Part shown: positions 10,599 to 59,608 of the stretch, piece after piece | How the letters are laid out: every line of letters starts with the position of its first letter | Position numbering within the stretch: the first letter of the stretch is position 1 | Assembly: GCA_001600815.1 (NCBI GenBank) | Contig: BCKZ01000013.1 | Location: 1-64,000 of the forward strand | Length of the DNA stretch: 64,000 bases | Direction of reading: 5' to 3' | From: Alloascoidea hylecoeti | Lineage: Eukaryota | Program-made: the position numbers and the translations under genes | The notes under the pieces: generated by a model | What the model was told of the DNA's origin: nothing | The model's input: the letters and a program-made list of their open reading frames with translations, nothing else | Databases searched by the model: none

Positions 10599-11912
10599 AT
10601 GAATTGTTATCCATTTCAACCATATTGTAACAATAACATTAACTATGATAATCCTTCATTGAATTACAATAAAGTGGCAAATGCTGATGATTTGCAGCCG
10701 AACTGCAATATTCAGCATCCAGGTCTAGGGTCATCTCTGAACATATCAACTTCATTTAACACTTCTGAAAATCCAAATACTAATGAATCAGTTACTAGGC
10801 AAATACAACCATCTATAAGCAAATTAACAACTCATTTTTGGGAGGATGAGAAAACCATATGTTATCAAATTGAACTGAATTCAGTTATAATTGCAAGAAG
10901 AGAGGATAATAATTTTATCAATGGAACAAAATTATTAAATGTTGTTCCTGATATGACAAGAGGTCGAAGAGATGGTATTTTAAAAGTTGAAAAACAAAGA
11001 CATGTCATAAGGTTCGGTCCAATGGTTTTTAAAGGAGTTTGGATTCCACTTGAAAGAGCACTCAGATTAGCAAATAGAGAAAATGTTGTTGATCAATTAT
11101 ATCCATTATTTGCTAATAATATTAAAGATTTAGTTTCCCAAGGTCCATTCTTAAAACCATCTGTTAAGTCGCGTGATCAAAATCAGCGATCTGTGAGATA
11201 TTCCAAGAATGAAGGTTCTACAGGACAGATTCCTCTGGCTCAGCCTGTTGATCTTACTTATTATTATGACCAAGGAAAACAATTTAGATATACACAAGCT
11301 TACATACCTACCCATGACCAAAACCAACAAATCTATCTTCAACAAGCAAATTCATGGCTAGCAGGTGCATACACGGCAAATCAGGGCAGAACCCCAATAG
11401 TAAATCAAAATTCGATAATAAGGCAACAAAAAATTCAAAGTTCTATTCAGTATAATTATGATAATAGTCCCTTGCAGAGAGTAGCTCAATCTAGCCAAGG
11501 GGATTATTTAGATATTAATTCATCACGATCAAGAGCCCCTCAAATGCAAGAAATTTCTATTCCCAATACAAATGGTGGAGAATTTTGTAACACCAGTGAA
11601 AATGATAGCAACACTATAGCTAATTTAAGTGCTGGTAATTTGAGGTCATTGACCCCAGCATCAATAGTGGGAACTGTTCCAGAACAGTCAGGATTACATT
11701 CTACGACACATTATGATACTACTATGAGTAGTATAAGTAGAACTCTAACACCTATTCCAGTTTCACTAATGAGCACTAGTGTATCTGCTGTGAGTCACGA
11801 TGACAACCTTCGAGATTTGCAGTTGGAGACAGAAGGTAAACTAAAGAGGAAAAGAGGTTTTCAAAGTTATGAAGTCTCTCCTAAAAATATACAATACACT
11901 ACAGTTATCTAA
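10599..11912 (+). CDS. APSES-domain transcription factor (StuA/Sok2/Phd1/Efg1 family), divergent
   Basis: [10 protein letters not shown]...[28 protein letters not shown]...[10 protein letters not shown]...LYPLF. Confidence 0.92.
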
Positions 11913-21541: not shown

Positions 21542-22942
<1,401 letters not shown>

Positions 22943-23099
22943 ATTAAATAAATGAATTACCAGGTATATATTATAAAGTATATTTTTAACATTAAATTTA
23001 CACTTTTTTTTGAAAATCCTTCTATAAAATGGCACATAGCACCCTGATGTGTATAATGTTCAAATTCAGTAGATGATAGAGATTATATTAACGATCATG

Positions 23100-23520
23100 A
23101 CATTTTAAATCTAGCGTTAGTAAGGCCAATGAAACAATAACTCTGAAGGATCCAAAACACAACCTTACCAAAAATGGTGAACTCTTTCGAATCAACAATA
23201 ACGACTCTTCTATCTATGTTATTAGATGCAATTGTAACGTGTTGAAAATCAAAGATTTCACTTGTATTATAGACTTTGGAGCAGAAAGTATTTAGGGACC
23301 ATATATATGCTTTATCGGCTCATACAGTACCTGCTTTAATAACCAACGTTAACGACTTTACCATTACTTTAATTTCTTGAACCGGGTTGTCCAAGTTCAC
23401 AACACGAATTTCCAGTTACTTGAAATATCTTGAACTGACGAATTAATCTTCATCATCATATCAATGAGGTGTTTGAAGTATTGTGTGAAACTTGGTTTCT
23501 AATTGTAGGGGCTATTCCTA
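23100..23520 (+). mobile_element. Retrotransposon aspartic protease relic
   Basis: Frame IYVIRCNCNVLKIKDFTCIIDFGAES*. DFGA (23272-23283) is one substitution from DSGA. Otherwise decayed; limits approximate. Confidence 0.35.
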
Positions 23521-23741
23521 GATATAGCTTAATAAATTTATATTAATATAAGAAGTATAATCAACTGATGTACCAGTGGACTGGATTTCATATTAATTGA
23601 TTATTTAATTAATATAAACAATTTATATATAAACATATAACTTTTCTTTTTAATACAATAAGTATCTACAAATACCAATACTTTAAACTCATTTTCTAAT
23701 CCTATCAAAAGACATCAAAATAAGCACAACTTTCTTTAAAC

Positions 23742-24210
23742 ATGTCAAATACAGGATCAACTGTTCATAAATTGAATCCAGGAACTCCTAAATTTAATAG
23801 TGTTGCTATTGATGTTAAAGCCGTTGGTAAAGCATTTTCTCCATATGTTCAACATGGTAGCTATATCATTCCACCTGTTGGTCTTAAAAGTCTTAAAGTT
23901 AGATTACCAAGACTTCCTAAAGATATTCAAACTTGCTTGTACATTAAAAGATTTACTAGAATGTGGAATGAAATATTTTGATGCTGTAGTATGGTTATCA
24001 GCTGGAAGACCTATATCTGAACCTTTGTTAATTAATACTAATTTAACTATTGATTCAATAATTAGTAATGATTTAATCACTAAATCTTTATTTTTTGTTT
24101 ATTTTTTTTTATTAACTCAAGCAAGGTATCCTTATCAAGAGAACAATTCACCTCCTATAAAAGTACCTAAGCTTTTAAGTTTATTAATACTGAAAATGCT
24201 CATTTTATGA
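23742..24210 (+). pseudogene. Candidate endogenous viral element: nucleocapsid-like gene of a negative-strand RNA mycovirus (discovirus/bunya-like), frameshifted and 3'-truncated
   Basis: Two overlapping ORFs with A/T-ending codons join by a 1-nt frameshift near 23930 into LNPGTPKFNSVAID...GSYIIP...DLLECGMKYFDAVVWLSAGRP...LFFVYFFLLTQARYP...KVPKLL. Family recognised from memory. Confidence 0.65.
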
Positions 24211-24469
24211 ATTAAGTGCTGTATTCCGTAAGTTTTGCGTGTTGTCTGCCGGGTTTGTGTCTCCATAAACATCAACACGTGATGGTGATGGCTGGTCTTT
24301 TTATTGTTATGGTAATAACAAGAAGTTAAGTTAACTGCTTAGTGTCCTCCACGTAAATATCAATAATAATTATAATCATAATCAATCCTTTTCTTATTGC
24401 CTATTTATATTTACTTCCCTACTATAAAAGTAAAAAACTATCTACTTCCATAAATAAAAGCCCATTATT

Positions 24470-25474
24470 ATGATATTTAGTTGGGATGCATTAAACTACG
24501 CACCATCAATCATTACAGTAAACATTCATGGATGGGGAGGTCGTCAATCACAACAATTACAACAAAATAAAGGAATTTCATTAATTTCACTCCTTTTATT
24601 TTTCCTGATAACAATTTTTACATTTTTAATATGTTTATATTTATATATTTCTTGGTTTCAATCACAATCAAGATATTATAAACTGAGGAATTTAATGATT
24701 AAAAATGGTGATTTTAAAATATATGAAACAGATAATGAATTTATAAATTCAATTATTCCAGTATTGATTGTTAATAAAAAACCATTGACATTAGGATGGA
24801 CTAAAAAAATTGAATCAAAAACATTAAAAAATTATTTAAATCTACAATTGAAAGAAAATCATGATGAAACTAAACAGCATGTTGATATAAATTTTAATCA
24901 GTTACAAATACAAGAATCATCACAATTTTTAAAAAAACAATCCAAATTTAAGTTCTTCATTCAAAATCAAAACCAATCCAAATCATCAACACCCATTACA
25001 ATAAACTCACCATCTAAAAGAAAACGAATATTTGAAATAAAAGATAAAACTATAAACAACAACAACAATAATAATGATAAACATGTAAGTAATACTAACA
25101 TTAACAATAATAATAATGAAAAAGAATATAAATTGGATAAACCAGTAACTATCAATAGTAACATTAATCCATTTAATTTTAAAACAATTTCAAATATAAA
25201 TAATAATTTTAACAATTCGGAATTAAATTATAGTAATAATGATAAAACACATTCAAATTCAAAAACAATTGAAATTTCAAAATCTACTTCAATGACATCA
25301 TCATCGACACTATTAAGTCCTGTGGAAACAAAATCTGAATCCAAAACTACAATGGTAACTTCTACTTCAATAGGAAAGGTTTCAAATTTAAAGGTATTAC
25401 CTAAAAAACCACCAAAGAGCCTATCATTGAATACATTTTCAAAGGTTTCTTCCCAATCAAGATCAATTGTATAA
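24470..25474 (+). CDS. Hypothetical single-pass membrane protein with Asn/Ser/Thr-rich tail
   Basis: 334-aa ORF; hydrophobic stretch LISLLLFFLITIFTFLICLYLYISWF; low-complexity C-terminus. Confidence 0.7.
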   Translation: MIFSWDALNYAPSIITVNIHGWGGRQSQQLQQNKGISLISLLLFFLITIFTFLICLYLYISWFQSQSRYYKLRNLMIKNGDFKIYETDNEFINSIIPVLIVNKKPLTLGWTKKIESKTLKNYLNLQLKENHDETKQHVDINFNQLQIQESSQFLKKQSKFKFFIQNQNQSKSSTPITINSPSKRKRIFEIKDKTINNNNNNNDKHVSNTNINNNNNEKEYKLDKPVTINSNINPFNFKTISNINNNFNNSELNYSNNDKTHSNSKTIEISKSTSMTSSSTLLSPVETKSESKTTMVTSTSIGKVSNLKVLPKKPPKSLSLNTFSKVSSQSRSIV

Positions 25475-25717: not shown

Positions 25718-27520
25718 TTATAAAACAACATTCTTTGCCAATTTTTCTTTATATTTACCAATACTACCATTCCATCTAGTTGCTGTTTTATTTTCACAAA
25801 CATAAATATCTTTTGCAATTTTATCTAATAATCTAAAATCATGAGAAACAACAACAACACCACCAGAAAATTCATCAATTGCATTAGCTAAAGAATCAAT
25901 TGTTGGAATATCTAAACCATTTGTAGGTTCATCTAATAAAATCATATTTGGAGATTCTAATGCCAATAATGCAAATACAACTCTTGATCTTTGACCTTCT
26001 GATAATGTTGCCATTTGTGCAGTTTGTCCATCACCAGTTAAACCATATTTTCCCAATTGTTGACGCCAATATTGATAATCTTGTGAAACATGACTAAATT
26101 TATCTCTAACGAATTCTAATGGAGTTTTTGTTAAATCTAATTGATCTTGAGAATGTTGTGAATAAACACCCATTTTTAAATGAGTATGTCTTGAAACTCT
26201 ACCAGTTCTTGAAGTTAATTCACCAGTCATTAATTTTAATAAAGTTGATTTACCAACACCATTTGGACCGACTAATGCAATTCTTGAATCCATATCAACA
26301 CCAAAATTTAAATCTTCATATAAATCATCTTCTTTTTTACCACTATATGAAAAAGAAATATCATCAAATGATAAAACAGGTGGAGGTAATTTTTCAACAT
26401 CAGGAAATCTAAAAGAAAATACTCTATCTTCAACAACTTTTGGAATTAAACCATCAGCTTCCATTTTATCTAAAATTTTTTGTCTTGATTTTGCTTGTCT
26501 TACTAAATTTGCATAAGTACCAGCAGAAGCAATAAATTTTTTAATATGAGCAATTTCTTCTTGTTGTTTTGTATAAGATTTCATTTGATTTGTTTCTAAT
26601 TCAGATCTTGTTTTAACATATGAATCATAATTACCACCATAAGCATTTAATTTTTGTAATCTCATATCAAGCATATTTGTACAAACACCATTTAAAAAAT
26701 CTTGTGAATGAGATACTAAAACTAAAGTTCTATCCCATCTTTTTAAATATTCTTCTAACCAAACACATGCTTCTAAATCTAAATGAGCAGTTGGATCATC
26801 CAACAATAACAAAGTTGGTTTAACAAATAAAGCTTTTGCTAAAGCAACTCTCATTTTCCAACCACCAGACATATCTTTTGTCTTTTTTTTAATTGTAACA
26901 CCATTAAAACCTAAACCAGTTAAAATAACAGCAGCACGACTTTCAAAAGTAGCAGGATCCATTGAATCAATACGTTCATATAGATCATCTAAAATTGGAG
27001 ATTCAGGACCATCGTTAACAATAATTTCTTCAACTAAATCTTCCATTCTCTTTAATTCATTTTCAGCTTCTCTGACAACATAAGTTAAAGCACTATATTC
27101 ACTTGGTTCAGCAGGTTCATTTAATAAATAAATATCAATAGCTTCAGGTATTGGGAATTCTCTTTCAGCAATAGATTTTAATAATGTTGATTTCCCACAA
27201 CCATTAGCGCCTAATAAACCATATCTTCTACCATAATTTAATTCTAAAGTAGAATCTTGAATTAAAACTTTTCCATGAAATAAAAGAGAAACGGAAGAAA
27301 GTTTGATATCTCTTGAAGTTTCTAAGGATGATAAAACTCCAGTTGTTACTCTATCGGATAATCCATGTTCATCTTTTTGTAGTTTTAATTTTTCAATTTC
27401 TGCTGCTGCTTCATCAACAGGGGAATCTGCTCTTGAATTAACCTTAGACCCTCTTTTAGAACCTTTGGCTTCCTTTTTAGCCAATCGTTTTGCTTTAGAA
27501 GCTGATATTTTACTTGACAT
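25718..27520 (-). CDS. ARB1: ABC-F ATPase (ribosome biogenesis)
   Basis: Two ABC cassettes (GANGCGKST/MSGGW/LLLLDDPT; GPNGVGKST/LSEGQ/ILLDEPT), no transmembrane domain, and GLSDRVTTGVLSSLETSRDIK. Confidence 0.96.
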   Translation of the reverse strand: MSSKISASKAKRLAKKEAKGSKRGSKVNSRADSPVDEAAAEIEKLKLQKDEHGLSDRVTTGVLSSLETSRDIKLSSVSLLFHGKVLIQDSTLELNYGRRYGLLGANGCGKSTLLKSIAEREFPIPEAIDIYLLNEPAEPSEYSALTYVVREAENELKRMEDLVEEIIVNDGPESPILDDLYERIDSMDPATFESRAAVILTGLGFNGVTIKKKTKDMSGGWKMRVALAKALFVKPTLLLLDDPTAHLDLEACVWLEEYLKRWDRTLVLVSHSQDFLNGVCTNMLDMRLQKLNAYGGNYDSYVKTRSELETNQMKSYTKQQEEIAHIKKFIASAGTYANLVRQAKSRQKILDKMEADGLIPKVVEDRVFSFRFPDVEKLPPPVLSFDDISFSYSGKKEDDLYEDLNFGVDMDSRIALVGPNGVGKSTLLKLMTGELTSRTGRVSRHTHLKMGVYSQHSQDQLDLTKTPLEFVRDKFSHVSQDYQYWRQQLGKYGLTGDGQTAQMATLSEGQRSRVVFALLALESPNMILLDEPTNGLDIPTIDSLANAIDEFSGGVVVVSHDFRLLDKIAKDIYVCENKTATRWNGSIGKYKEKLAKNVVL

Positions 27521-48700: not shown

Positions 48701-49088
48701 TTCAGGAAAAGATCGTTGGTTTAAAATTGTTCAGTTTGGTTTAATTAATTAAATTAGCGAACTGCCTTTTTTGCCAATAGCAGAGCGTACAGAATGCACA
48801 GAACACTAAGTGGCAATTGCGGCATGCATAATGTATTATCTGCAGGCTCCTATTGGCTCGCTGCACGTCTAGAAGCTAGAGATTCCCAATGCAGTCGAGG
48901 ATTGCCTTCGGCAGAGATGCATGTCCGGCAATCAGCATTCGTGCATCCAGTCATGCAAGAGAGAAAGTTGCTCAATTTGTTTTCCCACATTTGCATTCCA
49001 TTTTTCTTTCTTCTGTTTTTTTTCTCTTCAACATTCGACAAGAAGTAAACTACTTATATTCATCTATATTTATACTAAACTATTACCA

Positions 49089-50471
49089 ATGGCTCGCTCT
49101 AAAGCATCCACTCATAAATCAAACGTTAAGGCTGAAACTGGCAACTCTTCTCAGAAGGATACGAAGCCGCAGGTGGGCGGACAGCAGGGACCTCCTGGTG
49201 ACCAACCTATCCTACAGGTCGCCATGAACGCGAATGCTCCAAAGGTCACTACCACTTTTTGGGAGGATGAAAACACTTTATGCTACCAGGTTGAGGCTCG
49301 TGGAATTTTTGTGTCAAGACGCGCAGATACCAACTTCATCAACGGAACAAAGCTTTTAAATGTTGCTGGCATGACAAGAGGCAGACGAGACGGGTTATTG
49401 AAAATTGAGCCTGTTAGACAGGTCATGAAAATCGGGGCTATGAACTTGAAAGGTGTCTGGGTTCCTTTTGATCGTGCTATTGACTTTGCAAAACGCGAGA
49501 ATATTTATGATGATTTGTATCCATTGTTTGTGGAAGATATAAGAGCAGTGCTGGATAGAACCAGCGTGGTTTGGCATGCTGCATCCCAGAACCGAAGCTC
49601 TATTCCTGGTGTCGGAGCATACCCAATACAATTGAATGAAGACCCTAATATGTTTAATTCTTCCGAGAAACATAAATCCGCTAAAGCTAGAAATTTAAAG
49701 GAAAGCTCTAAGTCTATGAGTGTTTTGAATTTCAAGCAGAAAAAGGGCAAAAACAACAAGCAGGATGCATCAGCTCAAAATGTCATTACACCAAACCCTG
49801 CTTATGGATACCCTTCAAATGGAGCACAAGATGGTTCTCAAATCCCGCCTGTTAATGGATATCAAGGCTATCCTCAACCTCAGCAATATCCATACTACTA
49901 CCAACCTTTCCCACCTCAACCTCAGGGAAACGGAATTAACGGCTCCATACCGCAGGCCCAGTATCCAGTAGCACCAATCCCATCCTCTCAATTAGGGTCT
50001 TCAGGAACTCCAGGTAATGCTACTAATTCTCCAAGTTCTCAACCAGGACAGGGGGCACAGCCTTATGGATATCCTCCTGCATATCCTCCATACTACGGTT
50101 TTTACCCATATTATCAACCATCTCCCAATGGAAATGGCCAACAGGGTGTACCACCACCAATGTATCCTTATAATGTTTCTGCCTACAATTACAGTCCACA
50201 GCCCAAACCTCCAAAGCCTACTGAAGAACAAAAATCAATTGCAGATGATTCTCAAAACAACATTCAAAGTGATATTCCAAATAATACTCAAGGTGATAAT
50301 AAAGATATCCAAAATGATAATAAAAATGGAGATCAAAAAGTAGAAGAAGCCCAAGAAGCAACCTCTGATGATGAAACTAAAAGGGTTCCTAAAAAACGTG
50401 GTAGAAAGCCAAAAAAGGAATTAGATGAAGCTAACAAATCTGATTCTCTTAAGAAAACTCGAAACAAATAG
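49089..50471 (+). CDS. APSES-domain transcription factor (Efh1/Efg1/Sok2-like), 460 aa
   Basis: [45 protein letters not shown]...[16 protein letters not shown]-rich region. The likely start is MARSK at 49089 rather than 48921. Confidence 0.92.
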
Positions 50472-59537: not shown

Positions 59538-59608
59538 TGCGTCAGCCCGGAGTCGAACCGGGGGCTCTTCGATGGCAACGAAGAATTTTACCGCTAAACC
59601 ACTAACGC
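59538..59608 (-). tRNA. tRNA-Gly(GCC)
   Basis: GCGTTAGTGGTTTAGCGGTAAAATTCTTCGTTGCCATCGAAGAGCCCCCGGTTCGACTCCGGGCTGACGCA: 71-nt cloverleaf with A/B boxes and a T6 terminator at 59534-59529. Confidence 0.97.

Follow-up and report, generated by a model that had tools for sequence, protein, structure and literature searches.

Positions 23742–24210 of the Alloascoidea hylecoeti contig analysed here (the window, meaning the whole stretch of 64,000 nt) probably hold a non-retroviral endogenous viral element, that is, a DNA copy that derives from a mycoophiovirus-like negative-strand RNA virus and covers the 5′ half of its nucleocapsid-like gene, the last gene of the polycistronic RNA2; the copy is intergenic, between a MET17-like gene and an unnamed open reading frame (ORF). 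The copy would keep the viral start codon; it carries one +1 frameshift near 23935 and ends at position 143 of the 304 positions of its protein family. Since half of the protein is missing and the remainder is out of frame, the element cannot encode a nucleocapsid protein, and the locus would now be a pseudogene without protein function. The preliminary description of this DNA had proposed a non-retroviral endogenous viral element, and this proposal gains support from family homology, truncation, the frameshift, host flanks in independent assemblies, and nesting in a clade of exogenous sequences; it had also traced the sequence to a negative-strand RNA mycovirus, namely to the N-terminal half of its nucleocapsid gene, which agrees with the coverage of positions 10–143 of 304 and with the gene layout and predicted fold of the relatives. 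The features are collected in Table 1.

Table 1. Features of the element and of the surrounding window (positions are those of the window).
Feature	Position	Strand	Basis or remark
ORF with KilA-N (APSES-type) DNA-binding domain	10599–11912		domain match
Upstream host gene, Cys/Met-metabolism PLP enzyme (MET17-like)	21623–22942	+	PF01053, E = 3.4e-133
Frame 0 ORF	ATG 23742 to TGA 23979–23981	+	79 aa
First piece of the putative viral nucleocapsid-like gene	23742–23936	+	frame 0; profile positions 10–61 match 23778–23936
Frame +1 ORF	open from 23800 to stop 24208–24210	+	direct reading of the sequence
Break, +1 change of reading frame	23930–23940	+	two profile matches abut at 23935/23936
Second piece of the putative viral nucleocapsid-like gene	23935–24186	+	frame +1; profile positions 60–143; best conserved motifs GMKxFDAxVWLxAGRP and YFFLLTQARYP
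TGA stop of frame 0	23979–23981	+	last 15 of the 79 codons lie past the break, out of family register
Short non-homologous tail and stop codon	24187–24210	+	alignment, profile search
Downstream host ORF, Asn/Ser-rich	24470–25474	+	no Pfam family
Host ABC-F type ATPase gene	25718–27520	-	PF00005, PF12848
ORF with KilA-N (APSES-type) DNA-binding domain	48921–50471		domain match

Frame 0 and frame +1 can be joined by a single four-letter step (written X) into a read-through product of 155 aa, while the remaining third frame of 23742–24210 contains many stops. Apart from the single frameshift, the 155 codons are free of stops; among 2000 shuffles of the 469 nt, none was stop-free, and the mean number of stops was 12.1. 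The ATG at 23742 is aligned two residues upstream of the family start. Two coding-like ORFs fusing with a 1-nt shift near 23930 into a product of about 155 aa, with a characteristic string of motifs, had been described beforehand; the frame change was found at 23935/23936, the X-bridged read-through has exactly this length, and GTPKFN, GSY, LLECGMKYFDAVVWLSAGRP, FFVYFFLLTQARYP, and KVPKLL are all present, each at columns that are conserved in an actual protein family. An intron in place of the frameshift was also considered and rejected, as inspection by eye of 23880–23990 found no GTATGT...TACTAAC...AG consensus pattern.

When the read-through was searched against 5.8 billion proteins, one match was obtained, P0004, with 51% identity over 87 aa (E = 8.4e-15). 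A search with P0004 in turn matched 420 proteins; among the 120 matches listed, most are 302–310 aa long, none is named, and all are encoded on contigs of 1–3.9 kb. Correction of the frameshift followed by a protein search, the check recommended in advance, has led to a large unnamed family, mostly from metagenome or read-archive contigs, with 314 representatives at 50% identity. All 2542 pieces of the six-frame translation of the window were compared with the family profile (alignment A3, 71 members), which matched 23776–24207 (profile positions 60–143, E = 5.8e-27) and 23724–23978 (profile positions 10–61, E = 2.9e-5), with every other piece of the 64 kb at E ≥ 3.8. The element therefore corresponds to family positions 10–143 of 304 split across two frames, short of the single frame of about 300–330 aa of a full-length member, and the same six-frame profile search found the C-terminal half of the family (positions 144–304) neither at the element nor elsewhere in the window. 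In the alignment, the product spans the first residues of the family to about residue 150, and the frame change falls within one column. With phmmer, the read-through matched 218 of 270 family and related proteins, with a best E of 2.6e-34 in this small set. The element is a fragment of a family member and not a functional member.

Pfam was searched with the two pieces and the read-through, with P0004, and with seven ORFs from the related loci L001 and L030, and gave no family, or noise at E ≥ 0.14; against the PDB, sequence searches that started from P0002, P0004, and profile A3 found at most stomatin noise (E = 0.44); a scan of a viral contig collection gave 32 pattern matches, of which 0 were confirmed; and the ESM Atlas gave no usable match. 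Members also vary in length. Among the 119 listed proteins (query excluded), 8 have 327–328 aa, and the 4 of these that were inspected all have an N-terminal extension of 23–24 aa; P0153, P0167, and P0234 reach 498–701 aa, their N-like core being preceded or followed by long stretches that are charged or rich in Pro/Gly/Gln.

The state of the copy bears on its age. A copy recently acquired from a virus adapted to the host, or a constraint of some kind, fits better than a long-decayed fossil, because there are no stops beyond the frameshift and because the GC content of the element (28.4%) is like that of the flanks (28.2%; window 31%) and below that of all 80 related viral-type contigs (36–53%, median 42%). 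The same features have a bearing on the possibility that the element, although of viral origin, is not dead, and that related viruses are hindered by its RNA or by a shortened N-terminal product, of 79 aa or, with +1 slippage of the ribosome, of 155 aa: the ATG of the viral gene has survived, the only stops are those due to the frameshift (0 of 2000 shuffles being stop-free), the composition is host-like, the sequence is identical in the assemblies of three studies, and a yeast-borne totivirus capsid copy conferring immunity, as described in passages of PMC6166632, is a precedent in kind. However, no canonical yeast +1 slippage heptamer was seen by eye at 23925–23945, and half of the protein is missing, so that such retention appears unlikely. 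The joint proposal that the element records, for the first time, infection of the budding-yeast lineage by a negative-strand RNA virus and that the half-gene was kept because its fragment or RNA interferes with mycoophio-like viruses is likewise an improbable one; if true, the retained half-gene would parallel the proposed role of endogenous bornavirus N copies and of yeast totivirus capsid copies.

Related ORFs in fungal genomes, which had been anticipated for this family, were found in Erysiphe. All named family members that were met come from Erysiphe pulchra, E. neolycopersici, and E. necator, where they are annotated as hypothetical proteins (e.g., EPUL_002789); Erysiphe accounts for 14 of the 32 matches of the search concerned, and the other 18 come from metagenome or read-archive assemblies on contigs of 1–4 kb. 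There are several such genes per genome, some on contigs of 8–10 Mb, mostly full-length (316–539 aa); the proteins match one another with E values down to 1e-127, and P0264 matches the profile with E = 8e-28. The Erysiphe set consists of P0264, P0182, P0277–P0283, P0285, P0286, P0232, P0248, and P0252. They probably represent endogenous copies of the same viral gene that are present several times per genome and are largely intact. Like the yeast element, they belong to the family and are encoded in fungal genomic DNA; they differ in being multi-copy and mostly full-length and in forming a clade distinct from the yeast copy.

The relationship was examined in a FastTree phylogeny of 91 rows, comprising the element copy, 14 Erysiphe sequences, 16 ‘core’ exogenous sequences, and 60 representatives of 285–345 aa, chosen by length from the best 150 of the 314. 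The element copy is placed in a clade with all 16 core exogenous sequences (SH-like support 99); those of Erysiphe group apart from the element, in their own clade (support 99). The exact sister of the element is unsure because its row has only 49% of columns filled and a long branch of 1.12. Since the element nests with exogenous sequences and Erysiphe forms its own clade, the tree favours virus-to-host transfer, which would have occurred independently in the yeast and the powdery mildews.

The presence of intact-looking homologues in three Erysiphe genomes, some of them on contigs of 8–10 Mb, may also be read in the opposite direction, with the family being an old cellular fungal gene that was captured by viruses and the yeast locus a decaying vertical copy; in passages of PMC9698584, a Claviceps hypothetical protein is the best match of CaNSRV2 ORF7, which points the same way. 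This origin is very unlikely, as named genomic copies were met in Erysiphe only (14 of 32 matches), all 120 P0004 matches listed come from metagenome or read-archive assemblies on contigs of 1–4 kb, the yeast copy nests within exogenous sequences with Erysiphe in a clade of its own, and the predicted fold is that of a negative-strand virus nucleocapsid.

The type of virus that would have donated the gene is suggested by the relatives. A metagenome scan with the N family gave 80 related loci on public contigs of 1.1–3.7 kb, those with several ORFs measuring 2.0–3.7 kb. ORFs of at least 90 aa on these loci are mostly on the plus strand, i.e., the strand of the ~304-aa ORF (249 vs. 67 on the minus strand), and 73 of the 80 loci have two or more such ORFs on the same strand, the other 7 being short single-ORF contigs. 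A small ORF family of about 100–115 aa (~109 aa) occurs on 61 of the 80 loci; the commonest layout is the ~109-aa ORF, then an ORF of 330–480 aa, then the ~304-aa N (21 of 80, or 32 of 80 when layouts with one extra ORF are included), and the N-like ORF is last in 60 of 80. No L-like sequence was found on the 80 loci. For the motif A6-8C, 212 occurrences were counted on the coding strand, against 25 on the opposite one; 197 of the 212 lie outside ORFs, though ORFs make up 82% of the bases, and the motif follows within 200 nt after 141 of 196 ORFs, at a median distance of 58 nt. Genes of Mononegavirales end with U-tract signals, and by analogy with these gene ends, A6-8C may be a transcription-end signal of a negative-strand virus. 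The available passages of the mycoophiovirus papers make no mention of such a gene-junction signal.

Several other features of these contigs were observed. A direct self-repeat is present in 10 of the 80, and in nine of them (L004, L005, L009, L013, L020, L023, L062, L067, and L079) it joins the contig ends, with periods of 1960–3031 nt; in seven of the nine, the repeat comprises exactly 99 shared 25-mers, equal to a 123-nt overlap, and the gene order of the end-joined contigs, e.g., L013 and L020, wraps around. The repeat of L058 is a short internal one of 108 nt. The wrap-around contigs point to RNA2 molecules in circular or head-to-tail form, or to an assembly effect, and chuvirus-like circular segments came into consideration on their account; in the passages available, mycoophiovirus segments are described as linear. 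Directly after the N gene-end motif, at L005:1939–1953 and also in L004, L009, L010, and L013, comes a conserved stretch of 15 nt that contains a small inverted repeat (CCTA..TAGG), a comparable inverted repeat (GTCTTA..TAAGAC) is found in L054, and the 15-nt stretch may mark joined segment termini. An extra ORF lies downstream of N in L058 (3126–3644) and also in L035, L045, and L069; its N-terminus, with an LPxEIL..I motif, may be F-box-like.

The layout of the relatives agrees with that of RNA2 of the mycoophioviruses (‘Mycoaspiviridae’). It has been reported, in passages of a preprint, that RNA2 of GWHaMOV1/2 measures 2911 and 2872 nt and carries ORFs of 108, 400/393, and 328 aa, and that HHpred ties the last of these (HP3) to Aspiviridae nucleocapsids (bioRxiv 10.1101/2025.03.21.644598). 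In 2024, ORF4 on the 2184-nt RNA2 of Fusarium culmorum mycoophiovirus 1 (FcMOV1) was tied likewise by HHpred according to passages of PMC11417338, and in 2022, the first such RNA-2, of 2947 nt, was described for CaNSRV2, whose ORF7 resembled only a Claviceps hypothetical protein in the corresponding passages of PMC9698584. The contigs of the relatives (2.0–3.7 kb) are comparable to these published segments (2184–2947 nt), as are the order and sizes of their ORFs (~109 aa, 330–480 aa, then 304–328 aa), and the last ORF shows a structural tie to Aspiviridae nucleocapsids, as do HP3 of GWHaMOV1/2 and ORF4 of FcMOV1; ORF7 of CaNSRV2 is probably their counterpart. The family is therefore probably the putative nucleocapsid of mycoophiovirus RNA2, a link that rests on genome layout, ORF sizes, and fold rather than on direct alignment with the named proteins. 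Unlike RNA2, the element comprises only positions 10–143 of 304, is frameshifted, and lies in chromosomal DNA; the partner ORFs of RNA2 (~109 aa and 330–480 aa), which stand beside N in the relatives, were not found in the window by tblastn or by the small-ORF profile.

The fold was compared by means of AlphaFold models of two full-length relatives that are about 20% identical to each other. For the first model (P0017, pLDDT 80.1), the top BFVD matches are two ophiovirus nucleocapsids (E = 9.3e-6 and 7.1e-4, probability 1.00), with weak rows for coat protein fragments of citrus psorosis virus and Mirafiori lettuce big-vein virus and for a qinvirus N. The second model, built on a broader alignment (pLDDT 88.5), has the same two top matches (E = 5.3e-6 and 3.1e-5), a citrus psorosis fragment at E = 6.3e-3, and weak rows for qin-, paramyxo-, filo-, lispi-, and nyami-like nucleoproteins. 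Ophiovirus N is thus the best and only significant BFVD match of both models, with a probability of 1.00, TM scores of 0.39–0.50 on the query and sequence identities of 11–15%, and no bunyaviral N is among the significant BFVD rows of either model. Comparison with solved structures gave weaker results: Foldseek against the PDB found no match at E ≤ 0.001, a wide fold search with the first model reached a best Z of 2.7 (Ebola NP 2.2), and an additional fold comparison gave no Z ≥ 2. For the second model, 6 of the top 9 rows are N proteins of RSV, NDV, Nipah, Sendai, measles, and Ebola viruses, weak at Z 3.8–2.5, with 169–201 residues aligned at an rmsd of 4.6–5.9. The nucleocapsid or coat protein of the ophioviruses (Aspiviridae), of 48–50 kDa, differs in its length of about 445–454 aa and shows no sequence-level match to the family; it is encoded on a monocistronic RNA3 of about 1.5 kb. 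The assignment of the family as a nucleocapsid, predicted from structure comparison and context, is well supported.

The preliminary description had, moreover, placed the donor among bunya-like viruses, as a Discoviridae-type S segment, and this part of it found no support, as judged by the published descriptions of Discoviridae. In passages of the preprint cited above, these viruses have three monocistronic segments, with the nucleocapsid on an RNA3 of about 1.1–1.2 kb, and discovirus nucleocapsids of 305 and 285 aa (bioRxiv 10.1101/2025.03.21.644598). A donor gene from the S/RNA3 segment of such a virus would share with the family the nature of a negative-strand mycovirus N of about 285–305 aa, and 7 of the 80 related loci are indeed short contigs with one ORF; however, at least three of these short contigs (L026, L028, and L029) retain the upstream A6-8C junction, and in 73 of 80 loci the N-like ORF is linked to other same-strand ORFs, in contrast to the monocistronic ~1.2 kb segment by which Discoviridae are described. 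The assignment to Discoviridae is unsupported because the layout of the relatives matches mycoophiovirus RNA2 and their fold matches ophiovirus N, with no significant bunyaviral N row in BFVD; the Pfam families of bunyaviral N are also unmatched. Such a donor is accordingly highly improbable. A bipartite Mymonaviridae donor, raised by the polycistronic N-bearing segment, was rejected as well, since the N of these viruses has about 415 aa and the second position on a segment of 3.9–5.0 kb, and the fold points to Aspiviridae.

The junctions and the break are covered by assemblies of several origins. A contig of 20,708 nt (X2) spans 22800–24800 and a metagenome contig (X1) covers 22960–24800, both with 0 differences; these two may be the source of the window itself, while X4, from an independent study, bridges both junctions and the frameshift site with two contigs (22800–24065 and 24167–24794, 0 differences) that leave a gap at 24066–24166. 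The frameshift site is covered by X1, X2, and X4 contigs, i.e., three studies, without indels, and a further sample, X5, holds 24006–24237 with one difference. None of the sequencing runs listed for this stretch was an RNA run. Lack of support for the locus in reads had been named beforehand as what would speak against it; contigs of three studies carry it unchanged. In DNA assemblies of more than one origin, the putatively virus-derived sequence runs directly into host genes. That the locus is an assembly chimera or contaminating viral cDNA outside the chromosome, for which it could be said that the window may itself derive from X1 and X2, two of the three full carriers of the locus, is scarcely credible, because the independent X4 joins the MET17-like gene to the element and the 3′ part of the element to the downstream ORF without differences, the X5 sample holds part of it, and the composition of the element equals that of the flanks. 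The stretch 24066–24166, at which the X4 contigs break, is T-rich and of low complexity, encodes FFVYFFLL, and shows a spike of summed depth in the metagenome run.

The surroundings are those of a host chromosome. In addition to the genes in Table 1, the window contains a GCN1-like protein, a septin, an alcohol acetyltransferase, and a Zn2Cys6 factor, and its only tRNA gene lies at 59538–59608; judged from their sequences, the neighbour genes would fit a yeast-like fungus with a low-GC chromosome. As for traces of integration, no poly(A) tract, target-site duplication, or LTR was found next to the element, no second copy of 22943–24469 was found within the window, and flanking direct repeats were not convincing. 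Among 14 large ORFs scanned, 11 had a Pfam match (3 were without a family), and 0 of the 11 had a retroelement domain. The 201 accessory ORFs of the related loci, searched by tblastn, gave no match at E ≤ 0.01 in the whole window, the best value being E = 0.007 in a 4 kb database, which is chance level; the small-ORF family gave two weak minus-strand matches at 23100–23300 that its profile did not confirm (best E = 0.49). Three short stretches, 22853–22940, 23053–23090, and 24224–24257, are matched at about 85–88% by other contigs of the same organism; the first lies in the 3′ end of the MET17-like gene, perhaps reflecting a paralogue, and the other two are unexplained short repeats. Elements of this kind are usually explained by a cellular retroelement having reverse-transcribed the viral RNA, with the product then captured at a break. 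In this case, the N mRNA or an RNA2 fragment of the virus would have been reverse-transcribed by the enzyme of a cellular retroelement, and the viral cDNA would have been captured during chromosome repair; since there is no poly(A), target-site duplication, LTR, or other viral ORF remnant beside the element, this route can only be inferred.

The viruses known from budding yeasts have dsRNA or (+)ssRNA genomes. In the passages that the literature search yielded, the yeast viral insertions are totivirus-like, and no paper describing a negative-strand-derived element in a budding yeast was met, in a search that most subscription journals lay outside and that is no proof of absence. The element would add a yeast-like fungus to the past hosts of ophio-like mycoviruses, and it provides a concrete query for a live virus in relatives. 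The analysis also ties a large unnamed family (314 clusters at 50% identity), together with the Erysiphe ‘hypothetical proteins’, to the recently proposed mycoophiovirus nucleocapsid, and this probable link would help annotate many orphan contigs. The kind of object, an endogenous viral element, is already known; what is of interest here is the lineage of the host, together with the connection between the family and the nucleocapsid.

Two groups of known elements are closest to the one described here. L-like sequences were reportedly found in Erysiphe pisi by Kondo et al. in 2013. Endogenous bornavirus-like N elements are N-gene fossils of negative-strand RNA viruses, as passages of two papers describe (PMC4574747, PMC6115245). 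Like both of these, the present element would be a disrupted, host-flanked DNA copy, here of a nucleoprotein gene, from a virus without a DNA stage; it differs from them in its yeast-like fungal host and mycoophio-like donor, and in keeping the 5′ half rather than the 3′ poly(A)-bearing part, with no retroelement signature found. Passages of two further papers describe totivirus-like integrated genes in budding yeasts, namely the STORM array (PMC13756089) and a ‘counterfeit’ capsid (PMC6166632). These, too, are non-retroviral RNA-virus genes fixed in yeast chromosomes, but they are of dsRNA-virus origin and include intact, expressed capsid genes, whereas the element reported here is broken and probably of negative-strand origin.
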